Source: a virus | DNA: 64,000 nucleotides | Virus record (IMG/VR): IMGVR_UViG_2919361683_000002 | Coordinates: 17,711 to 81,710 of that record | Strand: one strand, 5' to 3' | Part shown: piece after piece, positions 17,962 through 64,000 of the stretch | Numbering within the stretch: position 1 is the stretch's first letter | How the letters are laid out: each line of letters starts with the position of its first letter | Notes under the pieces: generated by a model | Told to the model about the DNA's origin: nothing | Database searches by the model: none | The model's input: only the letters and a program-made list of their open reading frames with translations | Translations under genes and position numbers: made by a program

Positions 17962-17996
17962 TAAAAGGATAGTTTTACTTAGATTGTTTTACTTAG
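17962..17996. repeat. TAAAA-N6-TTTTA site (spacer GGATAG) with duplicated arm GTTTTACTTAG
   Basis: Perfect site 17962-17977; 11-bp direct repeat at 17972-17982 and 17986-17996. Confidence 0.75.
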
Positions 17997-18180
17997 TCCA
18001 ACATGTGACGTAGGGTTCTTGCCAACGTTCTTTATTGAAAAGAAGGGGATTATCAGGGTATTGTTTGTGAGTTGAGAATGTTTTCTTTTGAATGAGAAAA
18101 TAAAATTTTGCAATTTCTTCGGATGTGCCCTCAACTTCAAAACCGTTGATTTTAGCTTTCATGTTCAACTTCTCCTTCAT
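17989..18180 (-). CDS. Small protein coupled to the recombinase (likely start MKAKINGFEVEG)
   Basis: Overlaps the recombinase 3' end; stop lies in the duplicated arm. Confidence 0.6.
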   Translation of the reverse strand: MKEKLNMKAKINGFEVEGTSEEIAKFYFLIQKKTFSTHKQYPDNPLLFNKERWQEPYVTCWTK

Positions 18181-19289: not shown

Positions 19290-19305
19290 TAAAATAGCTC
19301 TTTTA
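19290..19305. repeat. TAAAA-N6-TTTTA site (spacer TAGCTC)
   Basis: Contains the TAA stop of the 19303-19737 gene; upstream of the recombinase. Confidence 0.75.
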
Positions 19306-22307: not shown

Positions 22308-23063
22308 TTATTTCTCCCTAAGATATTTTTCTAAACATTCTGGACTCATAATATGGTTCGAGAATGTGCCTAAATCACAAAAAAGCTCAAAACCTTTCTC
22401 TTGAGCCATTTTACAGAAGTATGCGTCTTCTCCTTGAGGGTGAAAGCCATATTTTATAGATTTAAATACTTTACGGCTTAACATAATAACTGCCCCTGTA
22501 AGATCAACTCTTATGAGAGATGAAGAGGGGAGAGAGGGTGCATTTTTTACTTGGTTGGTTACAACATGTTCATAATAGCCCTTACTATTGATCTTCATGA
22601 TGTTGGGGAACAGGTATGGTTTCTCAGGACGAACAATGTGTCCATTCCAAATCAATCCTGATATGATATCCTTGTCCGATTTGAGTAGATTATTAATGAT
22701 ATCAGGTTGCACGAGGATATCTGTGTCTATAAACATCAGATAATCAGTTTTGGTTTTTGACATGATATAATTCCGTAATTTACTCAAATGAGTATATATG
22801 AAGTTGTTTCTAATGTTTAAGTCTCTTTTATCTACAGGAGCATTTCGATTGTACACCTCAACTCTAATATTTCTATATATGTGCCTGTATTGCTTTTTAA
22901 AGTTGTACAATAAATTTAAAGAATTATCAGTTGAATCATTGATTACAAATATGAATTCAATTAAGTTAGTAGGATAATTCAATTCCAATAAGCTTTTTAG
23001 ATATTTATCTAAAATCCACTCCCGGTTACGAACAGGCGTTGCAATTGTAACAGTTTGGTTCAT
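22308..23063 (-). CDS. Glycosyltransferase family 2 (GT-A)
   Basis: IATPVRN, INDSTD, FIDTD (DxD), GED..FC. Confidence 0.9.
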   Translation of the reverse strand: MNQTVTIATPVRNREWILDKYLKSLLELNYPTNLIEFIFVINDSTDNSLNLLYNFKKQYRHIYRNIRVEVYNRNAPVDKRDLNIRNNFIYTHLSKLRNYIMSKTKTDYLMFIDTDILVQPDIINNLLKSDKDIISGLIWNGHIVRPEKPYLFPNIMKINSKGYYEHVVTNQVKNAPSLPSSSLIRVDLTGAVIMLSRKVFKSIKYGFHPQGEDAYFCKMAQEKGFELFCDLGTFSNHIMSPECLEKYLREK

Positions 23064-42567: not shown

Positions 42568-43617
42568 ATGAGTGCATCGCTAAATAATAATTTGGTTGGA
42601 TTACATACAAAAAGTGTGAATGAAGATATTGAAACTCATTTGAATAGCTTCGAAAGCAGATTTACTTCAAACACTTATAGAAATAGATTGGTTAAATTCT
42701 TTATGTGGTACAGAGGTAAAAATCTAGCTTCATTAAAAGAAGATGACTTGCAGATTAGAAATGCTGATATCCTAAGATATCGTAACTTTTTGAAAGAATT
42801 AAAAGATGAAGATGAAAAGAGATTCTACACAAACACTACAATCAATAATTTCATTGCAGCGATACAAAGCCTTTATACATTTCTCGAAAAAAATGACTAC
42901 AATGTAAAAGCAATTGTGACTCAAATAAAGCCATTATCTGATGATTCCGAACAATGCGGTAGACTCTATACTCACGAAGCTGAACAGATGGCTGTGATTG
43001 CCGAAGGGACAGTAAAAGGTATTGAAAAATCAGCATTGATTCGCATGGCATATACAACGAGTTTTCGTAAAGGATCGCTATTAAATCTTCAATGGACAGA
43101 TATAATCAAGACTGAATCTCATGATTACTATGAGGTAAATATTATAGGGAAAGGTGGAAAGAAACATGTAATGCCAATCTCTCCAGATCTATATGATTAT
43201 CTACTAAAAATAAAGGAACAACCATACTATAAAAGATACAATGATAATAAAATATTTCATTTAGGTACAAAAACAATTCAAAATATGATGGATTATTTAA
43301 AAAGCGAACTAAAAATACCAAAAGAAAGAAACGTAGTGTTCCATAGTTTTCGAAATGTTGCCAGTATGTATGGAACACTTGAAGAAGCAAAAGAACACTA
43401 CAATCATTCTAGTTATAATGTTACGGAACGCTACAGACATAAAGACAATGATTTAAGCAATAGTCTCAGTTTACGTATCGGTAATCAAATCGAGGATTCA
43501 ATATTCGACGAACTGACAAAAGAAGAATTGATTGAGATTATTTTAAATCAGCATGAAGGAGCCGTATTTCAAATGAAAAGAGAAGCCAAAAAACTAAAAG
43601 AAGGGAAGACAGAGTAA
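42568..43617 (+). CDS. Tyrosine recombinase/integrase family protein
   Basis: SAM-like N-terminus; TSFRKG (R), GKGGK (K), HSFRN, NHS, TERY (Y). Confidence 0.88.
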   Translation: MSASLNNNLVGLHTKSVNEDIETHLNSFESRFTSNTYRNRLVKFFMWYRGKNLASLKEDDLQIRNADILRYRNFLKELKDEDEKRFYTNTTINNFIAAIQSLYTFLEKNDYNVKAIVTQIKPLSDDSEQCGRLYTHEAEQMAVIAEGTVKGIEKSALIRMAYTTSFRKGSLLNLQWTDIIKTESHDYYEVNIIGKGGKKHVMPISPDLYDYLLKIKEQPYYKRYNDNKIFHLGTKTIQNMMDYLKSELKIPKERNVVFHSFRNVASMYGTLEEAKEHYNHSSYNVTERYRHKDNDLSNSLSLRIGNQIEDSIFDELTKEELIEIILNQHEGAVFQMKREAKKLKEGKTE

Positions 43618-49333: not shown

Positions 49334-52300
49334 GTGATTCAGATGTGGTATGGTGATAAAAGAGAAGCAAAAGTGAATATTGCTATGGCTTTGATTGAAA
49401 AAGGATGGAAAATTTATGGATTCAAAAATGATGAATCTAATATGATGGTTGACTATTATTCACCAGCAGACTGGGGCGGTATTGCTGAAAAAGATGGATT
49501 TATTCTTTGTATTGACCAATCTAGCTTGTCCTATAGCGGATATCAAGCAAAGGAATACATAGGTGGTAATGCTGTATATAAAACTAATGCACGTATTCAA
49601 AAACTTGAAGCAATGATGAATGATGAGGCTTCAACTGATAACGAAAAGGCTTCTTGTGCAGTATTGATTGAGAAGGAAAAAGAAAAAGCAGATATGATTG
49701 AGAAGTATAAAGTTATTGAAACGTATCCTACATTTTCGCATCCAAATCCTAAAAGTTGTTCGTGGCATATTGAAAAAGACGGTCAAATTATTGCTAAGGG
49801 TACGGGCGTATTCGCTTGCTATCAAAATAATGACCACATTGAAGCTAATCGTATCGAACGTGATAACAAAATAAATAAATTGATTGCACGTTTTGAAAAA
49901 GCAGTCAAAGATACAGGCGCACTAAAAACTGAAGTGGTTAAGGTTGAAAAGAAAGTTATCAAACCAGTTGAAAAAGAAGACAAAACTATCAATGTTAACG
50001 ATGTATTATCTTTTTCTTATCATGGGCATTATTGGGTAGTTACTGACATCTATACAAACTCAAAAGCACAAACCTGTGTTACCTACGAACTTTTGGGTAG
50101 TGGAAAAAGAGGGTATCAGCGTCTAAATGGTATGAGTGTTAAGCGCTATTACCAAACACTCGATAGATTAAACAAAGGGATTGAAGAAGGAACTGTTAAA
50201 GTACACACCTTGCAAGAGGTTATAGAATACCAAGAAAAAACAGTGTTCAAGAAGGCAGCTCGTAAACAGACCGTTTCTAATGTTCCAGCTATTGAAACAA
50301 CAGAAGAGACAAAGGAGCGCGATGAAGATGTGAACGTGTCTCCTGAAGTAGTAGTATCATACAACGATGAGAAGAAAGGTATTGAGATCCGTTTCCCGTC
50401 TAAACCCGAAAGTAATATTATTGAACAACTTAAGGCTTATGGTTTTAGATGGTCTAAACGTGGGTTTTGGTATGCTAAACAGTCAGATAAAACAAATCAA
50501 TTCGCAAGTTCATTGCAAGCGGACTATAACAATCATAACAACATTAACGAAACGGTTAGTATTGCAGTGTTTGAAGATATTAATATTGATGACCTTCACA
50601 TGTACATTGTCTCAGATGAATTACAATCACGTTTACATTCATCTAGTCTGTTTCAGGTAGACTATAAAAAGGATAGTTTCAATACATTTAACGAACTCCA
50701 AAAAGCCGCTCTAAATGTGCTATCGCAAGCAGACAATGAATATCTTCAATACCAAATTAAAAAGTACTTACAATCCTTTAAGCAGCGTTATTATAAACAA
50801 TACATTAAAATACTTAATCATCGCGCAAATAATCCTTCATGGGCTGTTACTGGGCGAGGTGGATTAAACGTTCAACGCTATAACAAAATGCAGGACAGAT
50901 ATGGAAATTTATTGAGTCAGTTTTCAGATATGAAAAAAGAATTTGATAATCGTATGGATAAATTCAAAACAAGAATTTGTCAATTAAAAAAAGAAAGATT
51001 AGATAAAGAAGTTAATGAAGTTGTAGAAATACCAGAATTTAAGATAGATCGTAAGCAAATTACTGTATCAGGTTACACAAAGACAACACGAGTGTACATT
51101 TATAAGAACTATATGATTGCTAAGTCGTGGGGAATGTATCGTATTTTTAAGGATGGGAAAGAAGTAGACACAAACCTAAAAACCACTAGCCGACTAGATG
51201 AGGCCAAAAGATTTGTTGCATATTTAAATAGCAAGGATGAGCCAGAAAGAACGAATGAAAATAATGATAAAAGACGAATTTTACAAGAAGAATCAGAAAG
51301 TAAAAATAGCAATCAGCAGCAATACAATAGCAAGATAAATAAGCAATTAGAATCAGCAACAAAGAAACTGAATGCCTTATCTGGTGATTATCAGACTAAC
51401 ACATGGAAACGCCAGCAAGAAGCAGCAAGCCGAGAACAGAAAAAAGAAAATCTGAAATTAGAAATTAGTATTCTAGAGTATCTAAAGGAAAAAGCATGTA
51501 GCAATACAATGGACAAATTCGACATAGCTTTATTAGTAGGTAGCTTTAGAGAAGATATGAGAATTAAATATAGATCAAGAGGTAGATATAATAATGAAGT
51601 AAAATATCCGACTATTAATCCTGATGCTGATGTTAACGGTTGGTGGAATCAAGAAGTTCCAAAAATGCAGAAGCGATTAAACAAAGTAGGAATACACAAT
51701 ACAGAGCAATACAATGAAGCAATAGATAAATATGCTGCACTTGTAAAAACTATAGAAAGACCAGCCAATCCAGTACAACAGAAGATTAAGAAAATGGAAA
51801 GTGAAGTTAAGCTCAGTAAAATTGATGGATATTTCCCGACACCTAAAACAATTGTTCAACGCATGATTGAATTGGCAGACATACAAGGTGGTGAAACCAT
51901 TTTGGAACCAAGCGCTGGCAACGGCAATATTTTAGACGGTGTAAATGAATATATACAAGACAATAACCTAAATACAGATTTGCAATGTATAGAGTGGAAT
52001 TATACGCTACGTCAAATTCTTGAGTTAAAACAATACAAGTTAGTTGCTAATGATTTTATCGAATTTACGCCATTTACTAAGTACAATAAAATAATTATGA
52101 ATCCACCATTCGAAAAAAGCAAAGACGTTGATCACGTATTAAAAGCATACGACTGTCTTAAGGATGGAGGAAGGCTCATTGCTATAATGTCACCACATTG
52201 GACATTCGCTAATGATACCAAGAGTATTCAGTTTCGTAACTGGTTAAATGACAAGGGATATTATGAGAAACTTCCAGAAGGTTCATTCAAGGAGTCGGGA

Positions 52301-52366
52301 ACCGGGGTCAGTACAGTGTTGGTAGTTATTGAAAAAGTTGAAGAAGAGAGAGTAAGAGTAAACTAA
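49334..52366 (+). CDS. Large multidomain protein with C-terminal N6-adenine DNA methyltransferase
   Basis: YFPTP, LEPSAGNG (SAM-binding), MNPPF, F.ESGT.V; long N-terminal polyvalent region. Confidence 0.88.
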   Translation: MIQMWYGDKREAKVNIAMALIEKGWKIYGFKNDESNMMVDYYSPADWGGIAEKDGFILCIDQSSLSYSGYQAKEYIGGNAVYKTNARIQKLEAMMNDEASTDNEKASCAVLIEKEKEKADMIEKYKVIETYPTFSHPNPKSCSWHIEKDGQIIAKGTGVFACYQNNDHIEANRIERDNKINKLIARFEKAVKDTGALKTEVVKVEKKVIKPVEKEDKTINVNDVLSFSYHGHYWVVTDIYTNSKAQTCVTYELLGSGKRGYQRLNGMSVKRYYQTLDRLNKGIEEGTVKVHTLQEVIEYQEKTVFKKAARKQTVSNVPAIETTEETKERDEDVNVSPEVVVSYNDEKKGIEIRFPSKPESNIIEQLKAYGFRWSKRGFWYAKQSDKTNQFASSLQADYNNHNNINETVSIAVFEDINIDDLHMYIVSDELQSRLHSSSLFQVDYKKDSFNTFNELQKAALNVLSQADNEYLQYQIKKYLQSFKQRYYKQYIKILNHRANNPSWAVTGRGGLNVQRYNKMQDRYGNLLSQFSDMKKEFDNRMDKFKTRICQLKKERLDKEVNEVVEIPEFKIDRKQITVSGYTKTTRVYIYKNYMIAKSWGMYRIFKDGKEVDTNLKTTSRLDEAKRFVAYLNSKDEPERTNENNDKRRILQEESESKNSNQQQYNSKINKQLESATKKLNALSGDYQTNTWKRQQEAASREQKKENLKLEISILEYLKEKACSNTMDKFDIALLVGSFREDMRIKYRSRGRYNNEVKYPTINPDADVNGWWNQEVPKMQKRLNKVGIHNTEQYNEAIDKYAALVKTIERPANPVQQKIKKMESEVKLSKIDGYFPTPKTIVQRMIELADIQGGETILEPSAGNGNILDGVNEYIQDNNLNTDLQCIEWNYTLRQILELKQYKLVANDFIEFTPFTKYNKIIMNPPFEKSKDVDHVLKAYDCLKDGGRLIAIMSPHWTFANDTKSIQFRNWLNDKGYYEKLPEGSFKESGTGVSTVLVVIEKVEEERVRVN

Positions 52367-52402
52367 TGATTTAGAATTTGAGGGAGGAAAGGCGGTGGTT
52401 AC

Positions 52403-52606
52403 ATGAGAAAGAATAAACCTCAGAGAAAGCCTGCTGGCGTATCACGGCTATATTGGAGCTATTTACAGGGGAACTTAGATCTTGCTGAATTAACTCTAAA
52501 ACAATTTAATCAGATTGTACTGGAGCAATACATAGAATATAAACAGCATGGTGGATATAAGTCTTTTGAAGAGTATTACGCCTATGTTCAGTCTAAAGGG
52601 TTATAA
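52403..52606 (+). CDS. Hypothetical protein
   Basis: Stop TAA is the left arm of the 52604 site. Confidence 0.7.
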   Translation: MRKNKPQRKPAGVSRLYWSYLQGNLDLAELTLKQFNQIVLEQYIEYKQHGGYKSFEEYYAYVQSKGL

Positions 52607-52743
52607 AACTGATATTTTACTGAAATTTATAGGGTAATTATGTACAAATCCAATATACAAAAATAAATAAACTATTGAATATAATGAAATGGCGTAGTAT
52701 AATAAACACATAAGATAAGTTAATACATAGGAGGCGGTTCACA

Positions 52744-53031
52744 ATGGAATGGTATTATGAGCGCTCTGAAAGAATTAAGGCAGCTAAACAGGAGAGACTT
52801 GAACAAGAGAAGTGCGCGAAATATACAGAGGTCAAACTTGAGGGGACAGCAGCTATTCAAACAGGATATACTAAACTCGGTAAAAAAGTTGTATTTGAAT
52901 CTTGTATGGGGTTTTCGTCTCAAAGCAAGTACGGTGCTGGCACTTTAAGTGTTTATGAAGGAGACGAAAGAAAAATAGTTTTCACAAAAGGATATCCATC
53001 TAAAGCTCTTGATTATATGATGAAACATTAA
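52744..53031 (+). CDS. Hypothetical protein
   Basis: AGGAGG RBS; promoter TTGAAT-17-TATAAT (52675-52703). Confidence 0.8.
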   Translation: MEWYYERSERIKAAKQERLEQEKCAKYTEVKLEGTAAIQTGYTKLGKKVVFESCMGFSSQSKYGAGTLSVYEGDERKIVFTKGYPSKALDYMMKH

Positions 53032-53121
53032 AAAACAATCGAAACATAGTATAGTGCAAGTAACAATGTACTGTAACGATTTAAAATACTCATTTTATCG
53101 GAATAATTGGAGGAATAAACA

Positions 53122-53367
53122 ATGAGAATAGGTATACTTTATGCGATAGTATTGGTCTTTGAAAATGGTGGACAGAACATGAAAAGTTTTGAAGATGAGG
53201 AAAGTGCCGTTTCTGAATCTAACGTCCTGATAGACGCAATAAAGAAAAGTAAAAGAAAAGGTCTTAAAGTCTATCTGTCTGAATTAGAATATGACAAAGA
53301 CAAAAATGACTGTTTAGTAGAAAGTAAACTTATTGATGAGTATTCTGAATTGTTATTTCAAAGCTGA
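53122..53367 (+). CDS. Hypothetical protein
   Basis: GGAGG RBS; flanked by sites 53082 and 53396. Confidence 0.8.
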   Translation: MRIGILYAIVLVFENGGQNMKSFEDEESAVSESNVLIDAIKKSKRKGLKVYLSELEYDKDKNDCLVESKLIDEYSELLFQS

Positions 53368-53427
53368 TGGATAACTGTTTTTATGAAATACTCAGTAAAA
53401 GAGTGATTTTAAAAGGAGAGATTGTCA

Positions 53428-53595
53428 ATGTGGACAAAAGGAAGGAAGCAGACTTTAGCAGAAGAAGTGATAGAGCTTTTAAGAGATAAAGGAATTGATT
53501 TTAGCGAAGAAATTATCGGTAACATTTTATTGAATAAATTAACTGAAAGAGAAGTCGAGGAATTAAGAAATGTTCTGTATGATGTTTCTAAATAA
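53428..53595 (+). CDS. Small hypothetical protein, 55 aa (MWTKGRKQTLAEEVIELLRDKG...)
   Basis: Not in ORF track; AAGGAG RBS abuts site 53396, stop in site 53593. Confidence 0.75.
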   Translation: MWTKGRKQTLAEEVIELLRDKGIDFSEEIIGNILLNKLTEREVEELRNVLYDVSK

Positions 53596-53713
53596 AATTC
53601 TTGTTTTACATAGATGCAATTGTATGAATATTCAAAATTTAAAGTATAACATTCGCATTAAGTGATATTTTTACCCGTAATACTGCATATTTATAAATAT
53701 CTTATGAAGGAGC

Positions 53714-53965
53714 ATGAAAATAATGAAGATTGAAAAATTTGTTGAGCAAATCACTACGAAGCTTGATTCAGAAGGATTGTATTATGAAGTGTCAGGTGAT
53801 CAATTTACATTCGTTATCTCTCCTACATGTACAATACATACTAATCATTGCACAATCGAGATATACAAAAACAGTATTAAGGTTAATGAGCAGCCCGTAG
53901 CAGGTATTGAAGAAATGATGGAAGAAGTTATGGATGTTGAACGTGGAGGTGTAATTTATGGATAA
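53714..53965 (+). CDS. Hypothetical protein
   Basis: AAGGAG RBS. Confidence 0.75.
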   Translation: MKIMKIEKFVEQITTKLDSEGLYYEVSGDQFTFVISPTCTIHTNHCTIEIYKNSIKVNEQPVAGIEEMMEEVMDVERGGVIYG

Positions 53966-54122
53966 GAATGAAATGAAAAATCTAATGAAAGAACTGCTCA
54001 AGGAAGAAATGGTTATTCGTGTCTCAGATGCAAGTGATATGTATAATGACGGAAGAAAGACTCTTAGAATCTCGATAGAGTTCGAGGGGTTAGAAATTGA
54101 TTCAGATTTTATTGATGTTTAA
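53958..54122 (+). CDS. Small acidic protein, 54 aa (MDKNEMKNLMKELLKEE...)
   Basis: Not in ORF track; GGAGGT RBS, overlaps upstream stop. Confidence 0.7.
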   Translation: MDKNEMKNLMKELLKEEMVIRVSDASDMYNDGRKTLRISIEFEGLEIDSDFIDV

Positions 54123-54160
54123 TCTATGTAAAATGCTTATTTTACTACTCATAAAAGGAT

Positions 54161-54871
54161 GTGGTTAATATACCAATAAATAATAATAAGAAAGCAAGAT
54201 TGAAGTGGCAAACAACTCATAAAATTATAGGGAGTAAAGATCATAAATTATGTAGCATATGTAATGGATATTTTACTTTAGACAATTTCTATTCCAATAA
54301 AGCTAATAGTATTGACGGTTTAAGCCCTTACTGCAAAACATGTACAAAAGAGAAATCTAATAAATGGGCAAAAGATAACTACGATAGAAGATTAGAAATC
54401 AAAAGAAATAACAATAAGGCTCCGAATGCTATGGTTAATCAGCGCGAAAATACTAGGAGAAAACGTGAAAATGGATATTATAAAGATCATTATAGAAAAA
54501 ATTTTCATAAATACAAAGACTATTGGAAACGAAGAAGTAAAAAGAAGCATGACATATCTGAACAAGAATGGAAATCGTGCAAGGATTATTTTAATGATGA
54601 ATGTGCTTATTGTTCATTGCCTGCAAATAAACATTTCATTTTAAGAAATGAGAACTTAATTCTAATGGAGTTACATAGAGAGCATGTTGACGATAAAGGT
54701 GCTAACGATCTAAGCAATTGTATCCCATCTTGTCGAGATTGCAATAGTTGTAAATCAACTTATTCTCTTTCTGAGTGGTATGATGAAACCAATGTAAATT
54801 TTAGTATTGAGCGATTGAAGAGAATACATAACTGGTTAAACGAAGATTATAAAAAATATTTAAGAACTTGA
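54161..54871 (+). CDS. HNH endonuclease with N-terminal Zn finger
   Basis: CSIC..DGL..YCK.C; CAYC..HREHV...G.N..SNCIPSC..CN..K. Confidence 0.88.
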   Translation: MVNIPINNNKKARLKWQTTHKIIGSKDHKLCSICNGYFTLDNFYSNKANSIDGLSPYCKTCTKEKSNKWAKDNYDRRLEIKRNNNKAPNAMVNQRENTRRKRENGYYKDHYRKNFHKYKDYWKRRSKKKHDISEQEWKSCKDYFNDECAYCSLPANKHFILRNENLILMELHREHVDDKGANDLSNCIPSCRDCNSCKSTYSLSEWYDETNVNFSIERLKRIHNWLNEDYKKYLRT

Positions 54872-54941
54872 TAAAGCCAGTCATTTACATAGATTGTACA
54901 TCATAATGAACCATATGTTATAATTTAGGAAAAAGGTATGG

Positions 54942-55139
54942 GTGAATTTTATGAGACTAAAAACAAAAAACTGTTTTGCTCTTTTGGGGGCTAGCTTAAT
55001 ACTGGGATATACTATTTATTCTATTCAAAATCCTGACACTAGTTCGGAGCATGCTGCCAATGTAGCGTTCGCTGTTATGCAAAGACTTATTGGAGCTATT
55101 GCAACTGTGGCAAATGCAACACATATAGTAATTAATTAG
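54942..55139 (+). CDS. Small membrane/secreted protein
   Basis: Hydrophobic N-terminus; own -10 TGTTATAAT and terminator 55139-55162. Confidence 0.6.
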   Translation: MNFMRLKTKNCFALLGASLILGYTIYSIQNPDTSSEHAANVAFAVMQRLIGAIATVANATHIVIN

Positions 55140-55313
55140 GCAGCCTTCAAGGTTGCTTTTTTATTTGGTTTTCTTTTTTAAAAACAAAAATAATAAAATT
55201 AATATAATTGACGGAAAGAGATATTATGGTATAATTAAGACAGATAGAAGAAATACATATCATTGAATTAAGATAATTATTTTACTATATCATCTCAAAA
55301 GGAATGGTGATTC

Positions 55314-55628
55314 ATGTTTAAGAACGTTAGAGCATTTATTACAAATGGATCTGGTAAGTGGGCAAATTTTCCCTTGAGTGATGAGGAGAAGAATGAAATC
55401 AAAGACTCTTTCGACGATGATTATTCTTCTTTACGTGTTAGCCCATCATTAACATACTTTCTTGACGACGATTTTAAAAGATGTATTGAGGTCAATACTT
55501 CGGAAATGAATTTAGATCAACTAGATGAATTAGCTAAAGCAATTGAATACTACACAGAAAAAAGAAGAAAGAACGCATATATAAAGAGTATGGAACAGGT
55601 CGGAAAATTGAAAATAGGGAAGTTTTGA
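55314..55628 (+). CDS. Hypothetical protein
   Basis: 104 aa; promoter TTGACG/TATAAT 55208-55235. Confidence 0.7.
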   Translation: MFKNVRAFITNGSGKWANFPLSDEEKNEIKDSFDDDYSSLRVSPSLTYFLDDDFKRCIEVNTSEMNLDQLDELAKAIEYYTEKRRKNAYIKSMEQVGKLKIGKF

Positions 55629-55667
55629 TCAAATTTTAAATTCATCAAAACTTTGGAGGAATAACAA

Positions 55668-55895
55668 ATGGAAAACATTAAAAATCTACATGTCCAACCT
55701 GCTGTCGTTTTTGAAAATGAAGGTGAGAAACTTGTACTTATTAAAGGGAAATCGAATGTTGTACTTGTTACTGATGAAACAGATTATGATAAGGAATATT
55801 CTGGTTTGATTACTGACTTAAATGAAGATTATGTAGAAATTGAAAATGGGTTAATGATTAAATGGGAATACGTTATTAGTATCGAAAGTAAATAA
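55668..55895 (+). CDS. Small beta-rich hypothetical protein
   Basis: GGAGG RBS; 75 aa. Confidence 0.7.
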   Translation: MENIKNLHVQPAVVFENEGEKLVLIKGKSNVVLVTDETDYDKEYSGLITDLNEDYVEIENGLMIKWEYVISIESK

Positions 55896-55925
55896 ACAAT
55901 GAGGTAAAATGTTACTTTTACAATG

Positions 55926-55965
55926 AAAGAGAAGCGCTGAGAAATACCTCAAGCGCTTCTCTTTT
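55926..55965. terminator. Bidirectional terminator
   Basis: AAAGAGAAGCGCT...AGCGCTTCTCTTTT between convergent genes. Confidence 0.8.
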
Positions 55966-56081
55966 TATTAACTATGCCAATTGTTATATAGCACCCTAGA
56001 CAATATATAAAGCACAATTAATATGCCAAGCACTATTCCTACTATTGAATATACTTTTTTTCTCATTGTAAAATCCTTTAA

Positions 56082-56786
56082 TTATGACTTTGAAAATGAT
56101 GAACCATGAGAACCATCGGTAAAACCCCAAATTGTGTGTGTGCCAACACCTACTACAGCTCCAAGTGAAGAATGTATAAAGTTCCAAGTGAAGTAAGCAG
56201 TTTCGTAAGCTCTGCTCTTATCTGAATTAATGTATGGTTTATCTTCTTTTATGCTGATATTAACAACAGGGAACCAGTTTCTAGTAACCAATCCACCACC
56301 ATTTATTATTTCGGTTATTTTGCCTCCACTAACCCTGTACTGTACATACACTTGAGTTGTAATTATATTGACACCCAATGTTGATGCCACTGTTTCAGCA
56401 TAAGGCTTATAGACGGCAGCAAAAGGAGTAATGGCGTGTTCAGGTTCCTTTTGCGTTACTCTAACTTTTATGTCTCCATTGTATAAGTCCGCATCTTTTC
56501 CACTTTGCATTGCGTTAAATATAGCTTTAATTGCTTCAGGATTATTCATGTAATCAACAAATTTCTGTTGATCTTCTTTTGAGAGTTTCGTGAATTGCTC
56601 TAAAACAACAGATGAATCATTATTATTCTGTACGCTTAGGCCTTTATTATTGGACTTTAGATAATTGATATAATCTTCCGGGGTGTTAATAGATAAATCT
56701 TGTGCATTAACTGAGTAAGGAAGAATACCTAAACACAATACCAACACGACAAACAAACTTAGCATTTTTTTCACTTTATTAATCAC
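56082..56786 (-). CDS. Secreted protein (moron, opposite strand)
   Basis: Signal peptide ending VNA; AAGGAG RBS. Confidence 0.8.
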   Translation of the reverse strand: MINKVKKMLSLFVVLVLCLGILPYSVNAQDLSINTPEDYINYLKSNNKGLSVQNNNDSSVVLEQFTKLSKEDQQKFVDYMNNPEAIKAIFNAMQSGKDADLYNGDIKVRVTQKEPEHAITPFAAVYKPYAETVASTLGVNIITTQVYVQYRVSGGKITEIINGGGLVTRNWFPVVNISIKEDKPYINSDKSRAYETAYFTWNFIHSSLGAVVGVGTHTIWGFTDGSHGSSFSKS

Positions 56787-57003
56787 TCCTTAGTAATAAT
56801 AGTAAAACAAAACCATTCAATATATAATAATGGATTTGTTTTACAAGGAATATCCTACCATGCGCTAAAAAAATTATCAAATATCAAGAATCGGTATCAA
56901 AACGAAACCAATAAATAAAAATAATTAAATATTGACATAGAGTATAATGGGTGTTAGTATTATTTTATAAGTTATTAAAATTTTTTTTAACGGAGGTGAA
57001 CGC

Positions 57004-57180
57004 ATGACATTGAGAGAAAGAACAATTCAATTAATCAGTGATAAAGGAATTAAAAAATCCTTTATAGCTGGTAAATTGAGTATCAGTAATTCGTTATTCT
57101 CACTATTTATTAATGGGAAACAGCCTCTACAGAAACCTGAAATAATTAAACTGGAAGAGTTAATTGAATCGTACAAATGA
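57004..57180 (+). CDS. Cro/Xre-like HTH protein, 58 aa (MTLRERTIQLISDKGIKKSFIAGKLSIS...)
   Basis: Not in ORF track; GGAGGTG RBS; TTGACA promoter at 56932. Confidence 0.85.
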   Translation: MTLRERTIQLISDKGIKKSFIAGKLSISNSLFSLFINGKQPLQKPEIIKLEELIESYK

Positions 57181-57214
57181 TGATGAATAAATACAATTAA
57201 AAGGAGAATTAAAC

Positions 57215-58270
57215 ATGGGAGCATTATTGAAATTACACGCAGAAAACTTTGTGGAAGATAAAAATGTTAGAGATCAATACATAAATAAAACTGAAGTATT
57301 ACAAAAGGTAAAGTCGCTTTCACTGTTACCAGATAATCAGCATATGACAGTAAAAGCAGTGGCTGAATACTATGAAGTTGAATATCAAACTATTATAAAT
57401 GTCCTTAATAGACACAAATCAGAGTTTGAAAAAGATGGTGTTAAGACGATAAACAATAAAGATGAGGGTTATTTCAAAGTGAAAGAAGCCTTATCTACTG
57501 GGCAATTCATAGTTAAACTAGTACCGCGTAAAGCGATTTTAAGAATTGGAATGTTGTTAAGAGATAGTAAGGTGGCAATTAAGGTTAGAGATTATTTACT
57601 AAGAGTTGAAGAAGTGTCAACTGAGGAACAAAAGAGAAGTGTTTGGTCTGATGATGATATTGTTAAATTGAACGAAATTATGAAAGACGAAAGGAAAAAG
57701 GGGAATAGTAAATGGGGGGCTATTAGGATGGCTGCTAAGTTCTTCAGCAAAAACCCTCATGCTGTTTATCAGAAATATCAGAATGTCACTAAGAAACATG
57801 GATCTTTGGACGAGTATATAAATAATAATAATTTGGTGTTTTTGAATAAAAAATCTGAGGAAATTCACAATGGAGAAGTTGAAGTAATTGACCAGACACC
57901 AAAACAAGAAGCGCAAAACTCCCCATTAGTAGGAGCCTTTCAAACAAAAATAAACAGAATATTAGATAATATGAAAAATACCAATGAACTTGAAGCAACA
58001 ATAAATGAACTTAAATTAGAAGTAAAAGAATTAAAACATAATTTACAAATTAGAGATATAGAAATAGCTACATTTGATGAAAGTCTTGCTAAAAGAGATA
58101 GACTTATAAGCAAACTCAAAAAAGAAAAATTAGCTTTAGAAACTAGTGTAAAAGCAATTCGAAAAATAGTTTTAAATGGCACAAAAACAAGCAATATTGA
58201 AGAAAATAGCAAGCCTGAAGGACTTATCTATACACATGATAAGAGTGGTATAGTGGAGGTAAAAAACTAA
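57215..58270 (+). CDS. Antirepressor-like DNA-binding domain fused to RsfA/Myb-like domain and coiled coil
   Basis: VAEYYEV..RKAILRIGMLLRDSKVA..VRDYLL; WSDDD...AAKFFSKNPHAVYQKY; terminator 58287-58314. Confidence 0.7.
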   Translation: MGALLKLHAENFVEDKNVRDQYINKTEVLQKVKSLSLLPDNQHMTVKAVAEYYEVEYQTIINVLNRHKSEFEKDGVKTINNKDEGYFKVKEALSTGQFIVKLVPRKAILRIGMLLRDSKVAIKVRDYLLRVEEVSTEEQKRSVWSDDDIVKLNEIMKDERKKGNSKWGAIRMAAKFFSKNPHAVYQKYQNVTKKHGSLDEYINNNNLVFLNKKSEEIHNGEVEVIDQTPKQEAQNSPLVGAFQTKINRILDNMKNTNELEATINELKLEVKELKHNLQIRDIEIATFDESLAKRDRLISKLKKEKLALETSVKAIRKIVLNGTKTSNIEENSKPEGLIYTHDKSGIVEVKN

Positions 58271-58470
58271 TAGATTAGTAACGATTAACTGGGTGTATAT
58301 TGCCCAGTTTTTTTCTTTGTTTAATTCCTAAATATAAAAATAATTAAATATTGTAATCAATAATTATGTGTGATATAATAAACCTAACAAAAAGAAACGG
58401 CGTATTGTAACCAGTAACACCGTAATGTAAGGGGTAAAACAACGATTTTATTCAGAAATGGAGAGATACT

Positions 58471-58836
58471 ATGAAGCTTGAAAAGTGGATTGGAGAAAAA
58501 GATGATACAAGCGGAAGTTATTATGAGATAGGAACCAAGGAACTAACATTACGGAAAGGTGGAAGAATTAACGCGAAAAAGTTGTATTGTTTTAACAGTC
58601 GTTTTGGTGAAACCTACTACATAACAGATACAGAAGTCATTAATGAAATAGAATTGTTGTTAAAGAATGAAACAAAGTTGATTGATTATTTGTACGGACT
58701 GGTAATTAGAGAATTCGGAGCAATTGAATTCATTGTCAGGATAGGACACAAGATTGCCGAAGAGCGCGAGAAAGGCTATCAAAACGGTAAGTTTGCAAAG
58801 CAAAAAGAGATAGTTGAAGTATTGGGATTGAAATAA
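58471..58836 (+). CDS. Hypothetical protein
   Basis: Between sites 58435 and 58844. Confidence 0.8.
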   Translation: MKLEKWIGEKDDTSGSYYEIGTKELTLRKGGRINAKKLYCFNSRFGETYYITDTEVINEIELLLKNETKLIDYLYGLVIREFGAIEFIVRIGHKIAEEREKGYQNGKFAKQKEIVEVLGLK

Positions 58837-58880
58837 TAGTCAGTAAAAACAGTATTTCATCTTGAAAGGGAGAATGAGAA

Positions 58881-59216
58881 ATGATAAATGAAGATCGGAT
58901 TGTATTTGGAATGGGAACTATTCTTGTGGGTACATATGCCCTTACTTTGGAATTGATGCATATCGATCCTTCAGCGGTCATTGGTGAACCAATAAGTAAG
59001 GATTTCAGCGATTCAATGAAGGTTTTAAAGAAAGCCACTTTCAAAAAAATGCTTAGCTTAGCGGATAAACTGAGCCAAGTATCAGAAGGAAACTCAACGT
59101 TTGAGCATGAAGGATATATATTCGACTTCACCAACTACAACGAAAAATCTAGTGAAGCAGTTTTAAAAGGAGTAAGATTTATTGTTGCTCAAAAGCAGAT
59201 TGAGCTGGCATGTTAA
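58881..59216 (+). CDS. Hypothetical protein
   Basis: Between sites 58844 and 59223. Confidence 0.8.
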   Translation: MINEDRIVFGMGTILVGTYALTLELMHIDPSAVIGEPISKDFSDSMKVLKKATFKKMLSLADKLSQVSEGNSTFEHEGYIFDFTNYNEKSSEAVLKGVRFIVAQKQIELAC

Positions 59217-59252
59217 TTCAAATAAAAGCAGGATTTTACATAGATCGGGGGA

Positions 59253-59702
59253 GTGATATTTTTGAAACCAATTGATTTGTATTATAGGGCATTTGCAAGC
59301 AAACATAATACCTTGGGACAACTAAAGGGATTCTATTATGATCATTTGCCAGAGATTGAAGATGATTTATGGGGAATTGAAGAAGAAAAGAATGAAAAGG
59401 TGACAATTCGAGAATATAAAAATTTTGATTTTGATGGTAGACGTTATTGGTTGCTCGCTTCAGTTTGGTTTGAGAATTCTCCAGTTATGATTATTCAAAA
59501 CGCTGGTCGAGAGGGAGATGATCACAGGCGGCGTTTTATAACTGACAAAGAAAAATATAAGGAGATGATTAAGTATATTCATACTTTACTCGAAACAGAT
59601 AGTGAGGTTGCGGATTGTTATGATCCTAATGACGATATTCCAGATTTAGATAGTTTCTATGGTCATACGCTAGACGGTACTTTTAAAAGACACTATTCAT
59701 AA
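59253..59702 (+). CDS. Hypothetical protein
   Basis: Between sites 59223 and 59700; stop in the site. Confidence 0.8.
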   Translation: MIFLKPIDLYYRAFASKHNTLGQLKGFYYDHLPEIEDDLWGIEEEKNEKVTIREYKNFDFDGRRYWLLASVWFENSPVMIIQNAGREGDDHRRRFITDKEKYKEMIKYIHTLLETDSEVADCYDPNDDIPDLDSFYGHTLDGTFKRHYS

Positions 59703-59736
59703 AACAGTTATTTTACCTGAAAGGAATGAATGTGCT

Positions 59737-59925
59737 GTGACGTATATAGAAGAGTTAGATGAAATTTGGAACAAAGCATTAAAGCAAACCCCATGTTCAT
59801 GCAAGAATGATGACAAGTGGGAGCAGGATGTTTCGGGGCGTATAAAATGTTCTAGATGTGAACAGATAGTGACTGAGAACAAAACAGGAACGCTTCTAAG
59901 AGAAATCAAAAGAATTAGAAAATAA
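59737..59925 (+). CDS. Small Zn-ribbon protein
   Basis: CSC...CSRC; AAAGGA RBS. Confidence 0.65.
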   Translation: MTYIEELDEIWNKALKQTPCSCKNDDKWEQDVSGRIKCSRCEQIVTENKTGTLLREIKRIRK

Positions 59926-59951
59926 ATATAATCAACTGGAGATGAATACAT

Positions 59952-62351
59952 ATGACAACACATCACGATATCGAATTATATCCGCACAATCAAGAGACAT
60001 ATGACAAGGTTATTGAAGCATGGAAGACGCAGGATCGTGTATCAACCGTACAGGCTACAGGTACAGGTAAGACATTTCTTATATTGAAATGCCTGTTTAC
60101 ATATCCAGATGTAAATAAGGTTGTGCTGGCTCCATCCAACCATATTCTGAATCAGTTAGCGAGTAGGGTAGATGAGCTACCTAATACAACATTGCTAACT
60201 TATACTGAATTATCATTTATGAGTGAGGAAGGTATTCAGCAGTTGAACGTAAGTATGATTGTTCTGGACGAATTTCATCGTTGCGGCGCTGAAAAATGGG
60301 GAGAAGGTGTAAACAAACTTATTGCAGCTTATCCAGATGTTAAATTATTGGGTACTACTGCTACGCCAATCCGCTACCTAGATGATGAACGTGACATGTC
60401 CGATGAATTGTTTGATGGTAATGTTGTAACAAATCTTAGTTTGACCGAAGCAATCGTTAAAGGTATTTTACCTATGCCTAAATATGTGTCGGCATTGTAT
60501 ACATTTGACGAAGAGATTATGAATCTAAAAGATAAGATTGATAAATCCAGCAATAGTGATGAAGAAAAGGAAAGTTTACACAAGGAGGTTGAACAACTAA
60601 GAAAGAAACTAGACAAAAGCAAAGGCATCCCTGTCATCTTGAAAAAATATCTGGGCGACAGTACAGGAAAGTTTATTGTGTTTTGTAGAAATAAAAAGCA
60701 TCTAATAGAGATGCAAAGTATAGTTAAAGGTTGGTTTAAAAAGGCTAAGTTAGGTAAGGGTGTTGATTTATATAGTGTCTATACAGGAAAAATTGAAAGC
60801 GAAAATAATAAAGCAATTGAAAAGTTTGTTTCAAATAAAAATAATAATAGTATTAGATTGCTTTTTACTATTGATATGTTAAATGAAGGCTTGCATGTTG
60901 AAGATGTTGATGGAGTAATTTGCCTAAGACCTACTATATCACCAATTATTTATTATCAGCAAATTGGACGTGCATTGCAGATTGGCAGCAAAGAACCTTT
61001 TGTATTCGACTTCGTTAATAATTTCAACAATCTAGGTGGCAGTACATTTGGTAACGACTTACGAGAAGCAGTAGAAAAAGAGAATGAGATGCGACGAAGT
61101 GCTGAGGGTGAAATTGAATTAAATTTGGAAGATTTTATTGTATATGATGAAATTCATGAAGGGTTAAATTTGTTTAAAAATATCGAAAATCAACTAAGAA
61201 ATAATTGGAGCCAAATGTTTAGTCGTTATTGTAAAGGTGAAGATAGTGTTGAAATTAAGAGGTGGGCAATCAATCAAAGAAGTCTCTATAATGCAAATCA
61301 ATTGACCCAAAATAAAATTGACCAATTAAATAGTGTCGGTTTCATATGGAATAATATGCTCGATCATACATGGAATTTCAACTATGAACTGTATAGGAGC
61401 ATAAAAGAAAAGTTTAGTTGTTATAATCTACCTAATAATTATGTAGTTGATGGACATAAAATCGGACTATGGCAACAAATACAAAGACGGTGTTATAAAC
61501 AAGGTAAACTATCTCAGAATCGTATCGATAAGCTAAACCAAATCAATTTTGTTTGGGATGTAGTTGATTCTAGGTGGGATAAAATGTTTCAAAGGTGTGC
61601 TATGGGAGACAGAAACGAACAGGTAAGAGTTTGGGAAGTCACTCAAAGAATGAATTATAAAAATGGTTTATTAGATAAACATAAAATCAAAAAATTAAAA
61701 TCTATAAATTTTAATTGGAACCCGATGGATTCCAAATGGGATGAAATGTTTGAATGTTATTCTAATGGTGAACACAGTAAAGAGGTGAAGACTTGGACAG
61801 TATTACAAAGAGTTAATTACAAAAAAGGTATACTAGATGAAGATCGGATCGACAAACTTAATAATATAGGATTTGTATGGGATACAAAAAATGAATCATG
61901 GAATCGAAATTATGAACTATATATAAATTATATAAAAGAAAATGGTGGTTATACCGTTCCCAAAGAATTAATCATTAATGGAATAAGACTTAATCATTGG
62001 GTCAAACGACAACGTCGTATATTTACAAAGGGAGAATTATCACAAGAAAAGACAGATAAACTTAATGCAATTGGCTTTCAGTGGGAACCTATAGGTACAC
62101 AATGGGATGAATATTATAAATTGCTTTGCAAATATAAATATGAGAATAATCAAACCGATGTACCCCAAAAATATGAGTTATGTGGTGTGAAACTTGGAAG
62201 GTGGGTACATCATCAACGCCAATATCGTAAAAATGGAAAGCTCTCACAAGAAAGAATAGATAAACTAGATGAGATAGGTTTCCAGTGGGAAGGCATAAGG
62301 AAAAACGCAAAAGATAGCCAAGTTAGCTTCAAAGACGAAAAAATACTGTAA
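59952..62351 (+). CDS. Superfamily 2 (ResIII-like) helicase with C-terminal helicase-associated (HA) repeats
   Basis: ATGTGKT, LDEFH, TATP, NEGLH, QQIGRAL; about six W..QR....G.L...RIDKL..IGF.W repeats. Confidence 0.92.
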   Translation: MTTHHDIELYPHNQETYDKVIEAWKTQDRVSTVQATGTGKTFLILKCLFTYPDVNKVVLAPSNHILNQLASRVDELPNTTLLTYTELSFMSEEGIQQLNVSMIVLDEFHRCGAEKWGEGVNKLIAAYPDVKLLGTTATPIRYLDDERDMSDELFDGNVVTNLSLTEAIVKGILPMPKYVSALYTFDEEIMNLKDKIDKSSNSDEEKESLHKEVEQLRKKLDKSKGIPVILKKYLGDSTGKFIVFCRNKKHLIEMQSIVKGWFKKAKLGKGVDLYSVYTGKIESENNKAIEKFVSNKNNNSIRLLFTIDMLNEGLHVEDVDGVICLRPTISPIIYYQQIGRALQIGSKEPFVFDFVNNFNNLGGSTFGNDLREAVEKENEMRRSAEGEIELNLEDFIVYDEIHEGLNLFKNIENQLRNNWSQMFSRYCKGEDSVEIKRWAINQRSLYNANQLTQNKIDQLNSVGFIWNNMLDHTWNFNYELYRSIKEKFSCYNLPNNYVVDGHKIGLWQQIQRRCYKQGKLSQNRIDKLNQINFVWDVVDSRWDKMFQRCAMGDRNEQVRVWEVTQRMNYKNGLLDKHKIKKLKSINFNWNPMDSKWDEMFECYSNGEHSKEVKTWTVLQRVNYKKGILDEDRIDKLNNIGFVWDTKNESWNRNYELYINYIKENGGYTVPKELIINGIRLNHWVKRQRRIFTKGELSQEKTDKLNAIGFQWEPIGTQWDEYYKLLCKYKYENNQTDVPQKYELCGVKLGRWVHHQRQYRKNGKLSQERIDKLDEIGFQWEGIRKNAKDSQVSFKDEKIL

Positions 62352-62422
62352 ACTCGATGTTGATTTTTTCGAATATACATAATAAAAACGGACTTTTATT
62401 AATACATAGGGAGACAGGAATT

Positions 62423-62767
62423 ATGAAAATTTTAATTTTTCAACTACCAATGGTGGCTGTTTATCAAAGTATGTTTAATCTGCAACTTCAAGAAGATATA
62501 ATTCCAATTGAAGTTGGATATATAACCCTTGATGCATTTGATCGAAATGAGTGTTGGCACTTAGGGAATTGGACTGCATGGACAGATGAGAAACCTCAGA
62601 ATTTACATTACGAAGGAAGAAGTTTTTCTAGTGATGTAATATTTCTTGATCCAATTAAAAATAGGTATCACTGTGCTTTACCATTTGGATGGTATGAAGC
62701 AAATACTCTACAAGAAATAATTGATTATATAAAAACTTATAAGCTTGGACAAGAGCTGATTAAATAA
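62423..62767 (+). CDS. Hypothetical protein (likely start MKILIFQ)
   Basis: AGGGAG/AGGA RBS after site 62383. Confidence 0.7.
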   Translation: MKILIFQLPMVAVYQSMFNLQLQEDIIPIEVGYITLDAFDRNECWHLGNWTAWTDEKPQNLHYEGRSFSSDVIFLDPIKNRYHCALPFGWYEANTLQEIIDYIKTYKLGQELIK

Positions 62768-62811
62768 AAGAGCGTGTAAAGAACAAATTTTTCAAAGAAA
62801 GGGATAGTAAA

Positions 62812-63189
62812 TTGAATCAATCTAAAGTCAAAACAATCCGTCCTACAGTAGCACGTCTAGATCCAGAAGGGTATAACAGAGTCGTCGAATATGCTTCCAG
62901 TACAGAGAAAACAAAAAGCGTGGGAATGGATCGTATGCGAGAAATGATGAAACAACACAAATCATCAAAATTGCAAGTAGCCAACGAAAACGATTATATT
63001 AAACTGTCAGGCAGACCACAATTAAAATATACTCACAGTACAGATGGGGCTAAGTATTCTTCTCCATATGACTTAGAGGTGCGACTCGTAAATAATGATA
63101 TTGCCATAAAGACTGACTTTGATGTTGATATTGTTTTCACATTTGATGAAATCGACTCATTATATAAGTTTAAAGAACAATTGATATAA
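62812..63189 (+). CDS. Hypothetical protein
   Basis: AAAGGGA RBS, TTG start. Confidence 0.7.
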   Translation: MNQSKVKTIRPTVARLDPEGYNRVVEYASSTEKTKSVGMDRMREMMKQHKSSKLQVANENDYIKLSGRPQLKYTHSTDGAKYSSPYDLEVRLVNNDIAIKTDFDVDIVFTFDEIDSLYKFKEQLI

Positions 63190-63369
63190 ATACGAATAAC
63201 ACTGATAAAAAAGCCACTATGCATGATATCTACTATATCAACAGTACAGAAACCGACAAGGAAATAATGAAGCGTGTTCAAAGTGAACTAAAAAATCACG
63301 TAAGATCAAAGAAGAGACGATAAAAGTTGAATTTTACAATGTAAAATACATAAGGAGTGGTGAGTATAT

Positions 63370-63609
63370 ATGAATCCTCAAGCTATGCAAGAAGCTATAA
63401 TATTGATGGAAAAGGCAAGGAAGTATGACGAATTAATCGCTTTTCCAGAAAGAAACTATGAATTACATTGTTCATTTTGTGGGAAAAGTCAAGATCAAGT
63501 GAATAGAATGGTGGCAGCGAAGAATGTCTGTATTTGCAATGAATGTATTGGAGTGTGTGTAGAAATTATTGCTGAAGATGAGCACAAAGGAGTCAGTGCT
63601 AATGAATAA
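63370..63609 (+). CDS. Stand-alone ClpX C4-type zinc-binding domain protein
   Basis: [14 protein letters not shown]...[12 protein letters not shown]. Confidence 0.88.
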
Positions 63610-63832
63610 GCAGTGGTATGCAAAAAGGATTATTCTTATAAGTGTGGCGATCTATGCAATTCTGTCAATTGGAATTTCAATAACAAGTTTGGGTGTGGCT
63701 GTTAAGATGTTGACTATTTTACTTGGACTAGCAGCAGTACATAGTGTACTTGTATTGAATTTGTATCTTAGTACTAGAACAACTAAGAATAAAAAGTCTA
63801 TTAAATTAGCTGATATGACAGAGAGGGTCTAG
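63602..63832 (+). CDS. Small 2-TM membrane protein (likely start MNKQWY)
   Basis: AAGGAG RBS; hydrophobic segments. Confidence 0.65.
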
Positions 63833-63877
63833 CAGGGTGAGCTTGCCTGACTTAAATCTAAGAGGAGAAATATATAA

Positions 63878-64000
63878 TTGGAGAATAATTTTCAAGTAGT
63901 TGAACAAAAGTTGGTAGAGTTTAATGGATCTGAGTTGTTGGGAATCAAAGCAGATGACGGTAAGATTTATGTGGGTGTTCGATGGGTTTGTGAAGGAGTG
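63878..64000 (+). CDS. Phage antirepressor N-terminal (P22_AR_N-like), truncated by window end
   Basis: GAGGAG RBS; (M)ENNFQVVEQKLVEFNGSELLGIKADDGKIYVGVRWVCEGV. Confidence 0.75.
   Translation, partial: MENNFQVVEQKLVEFNGSELLGIKADDGKIYVGVRWVCEGV

Follow-up and report, generated by a model that had tools for sequence, protein, structure and literature searches.

How phages exchange unrelated genes at exact gene boundaries without changing their order has been asked for a long time. The idea that linker sequences are the answer goes back decades (see the account in PMC2839356), and the process is still named among the open problems in recent work (PMC13586616). The question is raised by a 64,000-nucleotide stretch of viral DNA, positions 17,711 to 81,710 of IMG/VR record IMGVR_UViG_2919361683_000002, which we refer to as the window and in whose numbering all coordinates are given unless stated otherwise. 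A sequence-only reading of the window had pointed to eleven perfect copies of the dyad TAAAA-N6-TTTTA between positions 52604 and 63336, delimiting single early genes, and had taken them for an integron-like array in which a phage recombinase captures or shuffles accessory genes, or alternatively for operators of an integrase-fold regulator. What are these sites for, and how are the genes between them exchanged? Our comparisons indicate that the six-base spacers are addresses of ordered gene slots, and make it fairly probable that the sites are core crossover sites of a phage-encoded tyrosine recombinase, for which two candidate enzymes are present and which would exchange slots by matching addresses. 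The phage is SPbeta-like, judging from its gene layout, its YopP homologue and a large conserved open reading frame (ORF) at the position of yonO, and the closest named homologues of the window proteins are from Paenibacillus.

All eleven perfect sites were found at the positions and with the spacers first read. The window holds 17 copies of the motif, an enrichment over the 1.12 +/- 0.98 copies found in 100 dinucleotide shuffles (maximum 4), and the whole 176,963-base provirus record holds 64. Across the record, each of the other spacer lengths from 0 to 15 gave 0-6 copies against 64 for the 6-base spacer, and TAAAA-N6-TTTTA ranks as the top 5-mer dyad of the whole genome (64 against 3.2 expected). 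The shuffles and the specificity for a 6-base spacer rule out chance or an artefact of A/T runs. What had looked like an 11-kb cluster is part of a much longer array, which runs from window position 51268 to about 155,500 in window numbering (68,978-173,229 of the genome) and thus extends about 100 kb past the window end; eight further sites lie in the late-gene region, outside this accessory-arm array.

The sites lie at gene boundaries, as had been proposed, with 11 of 11 centres in the first-read region outside ORF calls and 55 of 64 genome-wide, despite a coding density of 83%. The left arm supplies the stop codon at 52604, 53593 and 59700 and doubles as a stop codon at 15 of the 56 accessory-arm sites, and at 33 of the 56 a start codon follows within 40 nt. 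The units are not always single genes, since the intervals 53593-54129 and 59700-62383 hold two ORFs each and 55905-58435 holds three. The arms had been suggested to extend towards 11 bp. The recurrence of TTTTACATAGA (53604, 59234) is real, as is its reverse complement at the end of the left arm at 54129, but the outer six bases are no more complementary within their own site (2.05 of 6) than with other sites (2.12 of 6) and have a weak consensus, so that the strict part of the arm consists of the inner five bases only. Right arms, said to end often in GA, do so at five of the 11 sites in the region and at 24 of the 64 overall.

The motif is widespread among related phages. SPbeta itself has 34 copies, and phi3T, Goe11, BUCT083, SPbetaL4 and Goe14 have 30-40 against 1-2 of a control pattern, while BcoS-136, PBC2, E3, PJN02 and Perkons have 17-31 against 1-7. 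Four close relatives of the phage studied here carry 54-61 copies (control 3-4), three more distant ones 12-16 (control 2-5) and a partial record 11 (control 1); a Staphylococcus SPbeta-like phage is intermediate, with 17 against 8, and MT835481 has 4 against 1. Three Paenibacillus chromosomes are not enriched (46 against 56, 28 against 51 and 13 against 22), nor is the bacterial genome G013 (37 against 74), and only a small metagenome bin, G012, is enriched among the five bacterial genomes (60 against 35). A motif of host chromosomes was rejected as an explanation, as the dyad is rarer than the control in four of the five.

The spacers proved to be the most informative part of the sites. Where two genomes share only one flank of a site, they have identical spacers in 143 of 158 cases within a five-genome group (one base off in nine, more in six) and in 126 of 137 cases among six SPbeta-group genomes, and this holds whichever flank is shared. 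As a control, the six bases that follow a ribosome-binding site were compared in the same way, and they agreed fully in only 14 of 44 one-flank cases. Where both flanks are shared, 143 of 144 spacer bases are identical, compared with 848 of 960 flank bases (12 distinct sites), and 124 pairs, which cover 46 addresses, have the spacer in common although neither flank is more than 50% alike. All 377 shared-spacer comparisons in the five-genome group are collinear, as are all 354 in the SPbeta group, in which SPbetaL4 reached 100% once scored on its complete, rotated record. Homologous genes lie in the same slot in 359 of 359 cases, and the 131 segments between shared addresses comprise 27 that are the same, 75 that are partly different and 29 that are wholly different. 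A prophage contig without a blastn match to the genome at E 1e-3 (G009:C54) has ten of its 19 sites matching addresses here, in order (1.07 expected; maximum 6 in 5000), where up to one arm mismatch was allowed and three of the matched addresses come from the first-read region. Because of this spacer identity, the collinear order, the same-slot genes and the order in G009:C54, the spacers are, by sequence comparison, slot addresses that mark allelic exchange with the order preserved, as opposed to shuffling of the integron kind. None of the genomes tested contains a spacer twice or in inverted form, in line with the earlier remark that every spacer differs; pooled over four lineages, repeats and inversions number 0 against 3.7 expected (product P 0.024). 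SPbeta and this phage share two addresses, which is about chance level, and we claim nothing for them.

Gene-content breakpoints of relatives fall at the edges of the sites, as expected if these are recombination joints. Four complete relatives (G001, G006, G007 and G008) were aligned, to which 45-56% of the genome aligns at 83-92% identity; they are related to one another, and the comparisons and counts are not independent. In the first-read region, homology blocks begin or end at 53098, 53592 (in all four), 54871, 55905, 58460, 58860, 59698 and 63319-63321, all of them site edges. The accessory arm has 154 distinct intergenic block ends, of which 24 are at most 3 nt from a perfect site (5.75% expected, p 9e-6), and within gaps that bear a site the ends fall at the site in 24 of 53 cases against 22% expected. 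Contigs of X3 and X5 join at 53098-53592 and 58451-59699; they resemble G001 and were not counted as independent.

Individual sites illustrate how flanks change around a constant centre. The spacer of CTGATA (52604-52619), whose left arm ends the ORF at 52403-52606, is kept in all four relatives with the right flank replaced in three, and that of TACTCA (53082-53097) is kept in all four with both flanks unrelated in three, G001 homology ending at 53098. GAGTGA (53396-53411) is also found in G007, G008 (one mismatch) and G009:C54, and TTCTTG (53593-53608), whose left arm is a stop codon and at which homology starts at 53592 in all four relatives, recurs in G009:C54 too. TGCTTA (54129-54144), which precedes an HNH gene, is missing from the four close relatives and present in order in G009:C54. 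TGTTAC (55905-55920) occurs in all four (one perfect, three with one mismatch), with G008 homology starting at 55905, and CAACGA (58435-58450), also in all four, has its left flank shared with G001, its right flank with G008 and neither with G006 or G007. GCAGGA (59223-59238) is perfect in G007, where both flanks are unrelated, and has one mismatch in G006; CAGTTA (59700-59715), where the left arm is again a stop codon, is in all four, with G008 homology starting at 59698. ACGGAC (62383-62398) is found in G006 and G008 with both flanks unrelated, and GTTGAA (63321-63336) in three of the four, homology starting at 63321 in G006 and at 63319 in G007.

Three degenerate sites had also been listed. 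The one-mismatch site ACAGTA (58844-58859) is a real address, perfect in G006 and with one mismatch in G008, whose homology ends at 58860. The site at 54872-54887, with two arm mismatches, is probably the address CCAGTC; G007 and G008 homology starts at 54871, and the same position holds perfect sites in G001 (CCAGTT) and G007 (TCAGTC) that differ from it by one spacer base. The third, at 55269, found no support in the four relatives. A perfect site absent from the earlier list, GACGAA (51268-51283), lies inside a 1010-aa methyltransferase-fusion ORF with both flanks kept in all four relatives, a position that could permit intragenic domain swapping.

Which enzyme might act on these sites? Both tyrosine recombinases named in the sequence-only reading keep their full catalytic set across distant phages. 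The first, at 18152-19198 on the minus strand, occupies the position of yomM in SPbeta beside the tape-measure gene and scores above the cut-off of Pfam PF00589. Its residues R173, K206, H281, R284, W307 and Y316 are invariant in 40 of 40 aligned sequences (40 of 120 homologues listed), it has 1605 relatives at E 1e-30, and its predicted structure has the tyrosine-recombinase fold, for which a structure search favours no family. The second, at 42568-43617 on the plus strand, is the homologue of SPbeta YopP (27.5% to yopP, E 1e-21), with R167, K195, H259 and R262 invariant and H280 and Y289 present in at least 90% of 43 sequences (42 of 77 matches and the query). Both catalytic sets are kept in SPbeta, PBC2, 949 and others, the second arginine being changed to lysine in some. 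YopP is reportedly an auxiliary repressor. A third recombinase-fold gene, MrpR-like (26% to SPbeta MrpR), lies beyond the window at 97266-98255 of the genome record, 37 kb from the YopP homologue, whereas in SPbeta the two are in one operon. It is without catalytic residues, as published for MrpR, a dead recombinase that serves SPbeta as a repressor (PMC10516654). A serine integrase is present as well and accounts for integration, which leaves both candidates as orphan enzymes. The YomM-like recombinase is the preferred candidate. Its gene is in every site-rich phage checked, and a site lies within 1.2 kb of it in 8 of 11 records (both positions read by hand). In this phage the motif scan placed one site downstream of the gene (17962-17977) and another 92 bases upstream of its start (19290-19305). 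This proximity is a post hoc hint that weakly favours the YomM-like enzyme, though late regions hold few sites.

If the sites are used in this way, two recombinase monomers would bind the inverted arms and cut at the borders between arm and spacer, and strand exchange would be efficient only between sites with matching 6-bp overlaps. Core-type tyrosine recombinases need such matching overlaps for exchange. Since no two sites of a genome share a spacer, the genome would be safe from deletions and inversions between its own sites. A superinfecting phage and a resident prophage that share 30-45 addresses could swap slots by crossovers at two addresses. The slot would be replaced without disturbing the order, the stop codon or the context of the ribosome-binding site, and the process would amount to recombinase-mediated cassette exchange in nature. 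Occasional reactions of adjacent sites with different spacers would delete or insert a spacer together with its gene, altering the address list. An address-matched recombinase would account together for the dyad, the fixed spacer length, the conservation in each slot, the order and the breakpoints. More broadly, we lean slightly towards the view that the genomes of SPbeta-like phages are indexed by dozens of sites that do not react with one another, and that a conserved recombinase would use these for address-matched exchange between phages, with order kept, driving a purposeful mosaicism with rare one-sided slot changes. If true, this recombinase would possess a large natural set of orthogonal sites, and the addresses would make it simple to align accessory regions without any sequence in common. 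The joints are visible and labelled in a model phage of Bacillus subtilis 168, together with two candidate recombinases, and the question is therefore directly testable.

An integron-like or Tn916-like process, in which site-gene units would be excised as circles and inserted at any site with mismatched overlaps tolerated, is where the few irregular junctions become relevant. We found four clear fusions in which the left flank and arm of one address are joined to the spacer of the next (CGAATC/TGTGAG, TAGTGG/TAATGC, TTGAAG/AGACTG and CAGAGA/ACGATA), and in each case the two addresses are neighbours in another genome. Right-sided fusions were not seen among the genomes compared, and four of four being left-sided gives only a weak P of 0.125. 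Two ambiguous pairs that may reflect drift, repeated promoter-like flanks that lie far apart and one micro-inversion were set aside from this count. The fusions weakly suggest the loss or gain of a spacer-plus-gene unit by a crossover at the border between left arm and spacer. The micro-inversion is in BUCT083 (L170-L176), at a site near the integration module where, compared with Goe11 and phi3Ts, the spacer is inverted (TGGGTA against TTCCCA) within near-perfect 11-bp arms and with both flanks kept. The same-sided fusions would suit a Tn916-like process, as would the YomM-like model, which has the Tn1549 integrase among its best structural matches (TM 0.61), an enzyme that tolerates non-homologous crossover regions (PMC5871717). 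However, this match is no better than those to XerH, XerA, lambda Int and Cre, no reordering was seen in 731 shared-address comparisons, every one of the 359 genes stays in its slot, and spacers match in about nine of ten swaps. Five sites folded with their flanks gave -0.2 to -4.9 kcal/mol and no common long hairpin of the attC kind, and an NCBIfam scan of both recombinases returned only Xer-type models far below cut-offs and no integron-integrase family. We regard this process as very improbable. Capture and shuffling are thus not supported as the main mode (collinear order, same-slot genes) and survive as a minority in the four fusions, and a Tn916-type tolerance of mismatched overlaps does not describe the main mode when spacers match in 143 of 158 cases.

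The other proposal of the sequence-only reading was that the sites are operators, or stoperator-like roadblocks, for an integrase-fold regulator such as YopP, breakpoints falling on them only because swaps survive at gene boundaries. SPbeta does use its dead recombinase MrpR/SroF as a repressor at many sites (PMC10516654), yopP lies in the SPbeta lysogeny operon, the sites stand between a stop codon and the next ribosome-binding site, like stoperators, and one of them is just upstream of the YomM-like gene. However, a dimeric operator gives no reason for the centre to differ from place to place and yet be better conserved than the flanks (143 of 144 against 88%), the centres are kept across phages without other DNA similarity, and breakpoints favour the site even within the site-bearing gaps. 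Repressor motifs also differ between phi3T and SPbeta (10.1101/2025.11.27.690993), whereas TAAAA-N6-TTTTA does not. The repeat upstream of the ten SPbeta genes listed as MrpR peaks (PMC10516654) is a different, asymmetric motif. Identity of the dyad with SPBRE, the known repressor operator, was therefore rejected, and SPbeta carries the two as separate repeats. Weakened by the spacer conservation and by this different motif, the operator reading now appears improbable.

Returning to address-matched exchange by a recombinase, several observations weigh against it. Most homology block ends lie away from perfect sites (130 of the 154 intergenic ends and 171 of 195 in all), so the sites would be hot spots and not the sole route, with other recombination common. 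A sharp fall in identity between genomes at the arm edges, from about 0.9 almost to background (0.47 against 0.41 at position -1, right flank shared), speaks for it, but the pairs in this profile were picked at sites common to both genomes, a choice that favours a step there. Near-identical blocks of SPbeta and phi3Ts also speak for it, with six of 24 ends at perfect sites against 0.5% per end by chance, but over six SPbeta-group pairs the figure is only 10 of 154. In no genome taken alone does the uniqueness of the spacers reach significance (P 0.07-0.87). The strict arm of 5 bp is short for a recombinase, and it stays constant while the candidate proteins fall to 25-30% identity. Phages with the YomM-like gene alone have few sites, which counts against that enzyme: SEP9 (10 against 9 control copies) and VPE25 (7 against 4) are barely enriched, and phage 949, with both recombinases, has only 7 against 3. 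The presence of a recombinase gene therefore does not predict an array, and a de novo dyad scan of SEP9, VPE25, 949 and MT835481 gave no replacement motif. In laboratory hybrids of phi3Ts and SPbeta, the main crossovers fall within identical blocks of 1.4-18 kb that contain sites and in which the crossover point is unresolvable, one unpaired 39-base switch in Hyb3 is without a site, and the authors call the crossovers homologous (10.1101/2020.05.06.055103). Several of the identical blocks that hold crossovers are bounded by sites, and paired short flips in the hybrids may be artefacts of word matching; we consider the hybrids uninformative for or against site-specific exchange.

A gene for a Sak4-like annealing protein (AAA_24) is also present, which brings in the main rival, that the 16-mers are linkers for short-homology crossover by this protein or by host RecA, the arms being bound or protected for another purpose. 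Many junctions have no homology other than an identical 16-mer, T4-type PeSL cassettes work by homologous recombination (PMC2839356), and sequence comparison cannot locate a crossover inside a 16-mer. On the other hand, 16 bases is well under the patches of <50 bp cited for T4 in that paper, longer shared genes lie nearby, and the ribosome-binding regions, with 14 of 44 identical, behave otherwise. Short homology also leaves unexplained the dyad with its fixed 6-base centre and the one-sided fusions. We judge it unlikely; if it does the work, the array would be a variant of linker-mediated exchange instead.

By analogy, an array of address-matched sites would come closest in its working to pdif modules or to engineered cassette exchange, and its role would be that of Botstein linkers and PeSLs. 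The XerC/XerD-dependent pdif modules of Acinetobacter plasmids (PMC7315799) similarly have many inverted-arm sites with a variable 6-bp centre, bounding modules that are mobile between replicons. Their two distinct 11-bp arms are read by host XerC and XerD, whereas the arms here are symmetric and strict over 5 bp, and the sites are not enriched on host chromosomes and occur at 30-64 per genome in a constant order; the phage recombinases fall far below XerC/XerD model cut-offs. The core sites loxP, FRT and dif share the inverted arms around a 6-8-bp overlap, the strict part here being 5-6-5, and exchange between matching overlaps, which our genome comparisons also suggest for these sites. In cassette exchange with heterospecific spacers of this kind, matching overlaps are needed and different overlaps are mutually unreactive. 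To our knowledge, natural core-type systems use one or few sites, whereas here dozens of overlaps would index a genome. Tn916 and Tn1549 cross over without homology at a variable overlap of 5-7 bp, in contrast to the fixed length of six and the matching spacers seen here.

PeSL cassettes and the Botstein linker model (PMC2839356) share with the array conserved intergenic elements that focus module exchange in a variable region. PeSLs, however, are promoter and stem-loop repeats that recombine within a genome to give mini-circles, whereas the sites here are 16 bp long, each unique, without promoter or terminator, and kept in order: none of the five terminator-like stems in 52000-64000 coincides with a site, and the best promoter matches (10-11 of 12) are located away from the sites, except that one overlaps the degenerate site at 54872 on the minus strand. 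Integrons (PMC8618304) share a tyrosine recombinase and arrays of mostly small unknown genes between sites, but no IntI, attI/Pc or folded attC was found here, no reordering is seen and the sites are genome-wide. SPBRE with MrpR (PMC10516654) and the stoperators of mycobacteriophages (PMC9283540) also place many protein-binding sites between phage genes, and MrpR is a recombinase-fold protein of the same phage family; as far as those reports describe them, both kinds of site are asymmetric, monomer-bound and phage-specific, whereas the dyad is symmetric and does not change between SPbeta, phi3T and distant phages. The array lacks a defining feature of each system compared and is provisionally set apart from all of them. 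It is apparently undescribed in print; our literature searches found no published description of the motif, with subscription texts, supplements and the 1999 SPbeta genome paper outside their reach and a passing mention possible.

The slots hold varied genes. The HNH endonuclease gene at 54161-54871 on the plus strand (Pfam PF01844) has its closest DNA match in G007 about 66 kb from the slot, below the thresholds of the slot test; it is the sole hint of movement outside address order, as for a homing endonuclease. A helicase gene with HA repeats (59952-62351, plus strand) is unaligned in all four relatives, and so is the single unknown gene between GCAGGA and CAGTTA (59253-59702, plus strand; PHROG 8664), for which no relatives were found in the viral contigs searched. 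The slot between TGTTAC and CAACGA includes a reversed gene at 56082-56786 on the minus strand, which encodes a secreted-looking protein of 234 aa, has its own terminator and matched no family. When 16 slot and nearby proteins were scanned for defence systems, the only matches were generic ones to helicases, methylases and kinases.

Three further observations concern neighbouring regions. A 24-base element at 52647-52671 precedes a strong promoter; further copies occur elsewhere in the source and in contigs of relatives, and it is possibly the operator of this phage's own repressor. The tail block is interrupted on the minus strand at 20216-23063 by three ORFs that read like glycosyltransferases. 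Also among the tail genes, at 5226-6736 on the minus strand, a Ser/Thr kinase gene and a RuvC-like gene are adjacent, and the two look like an inserted accessory or defence pair.

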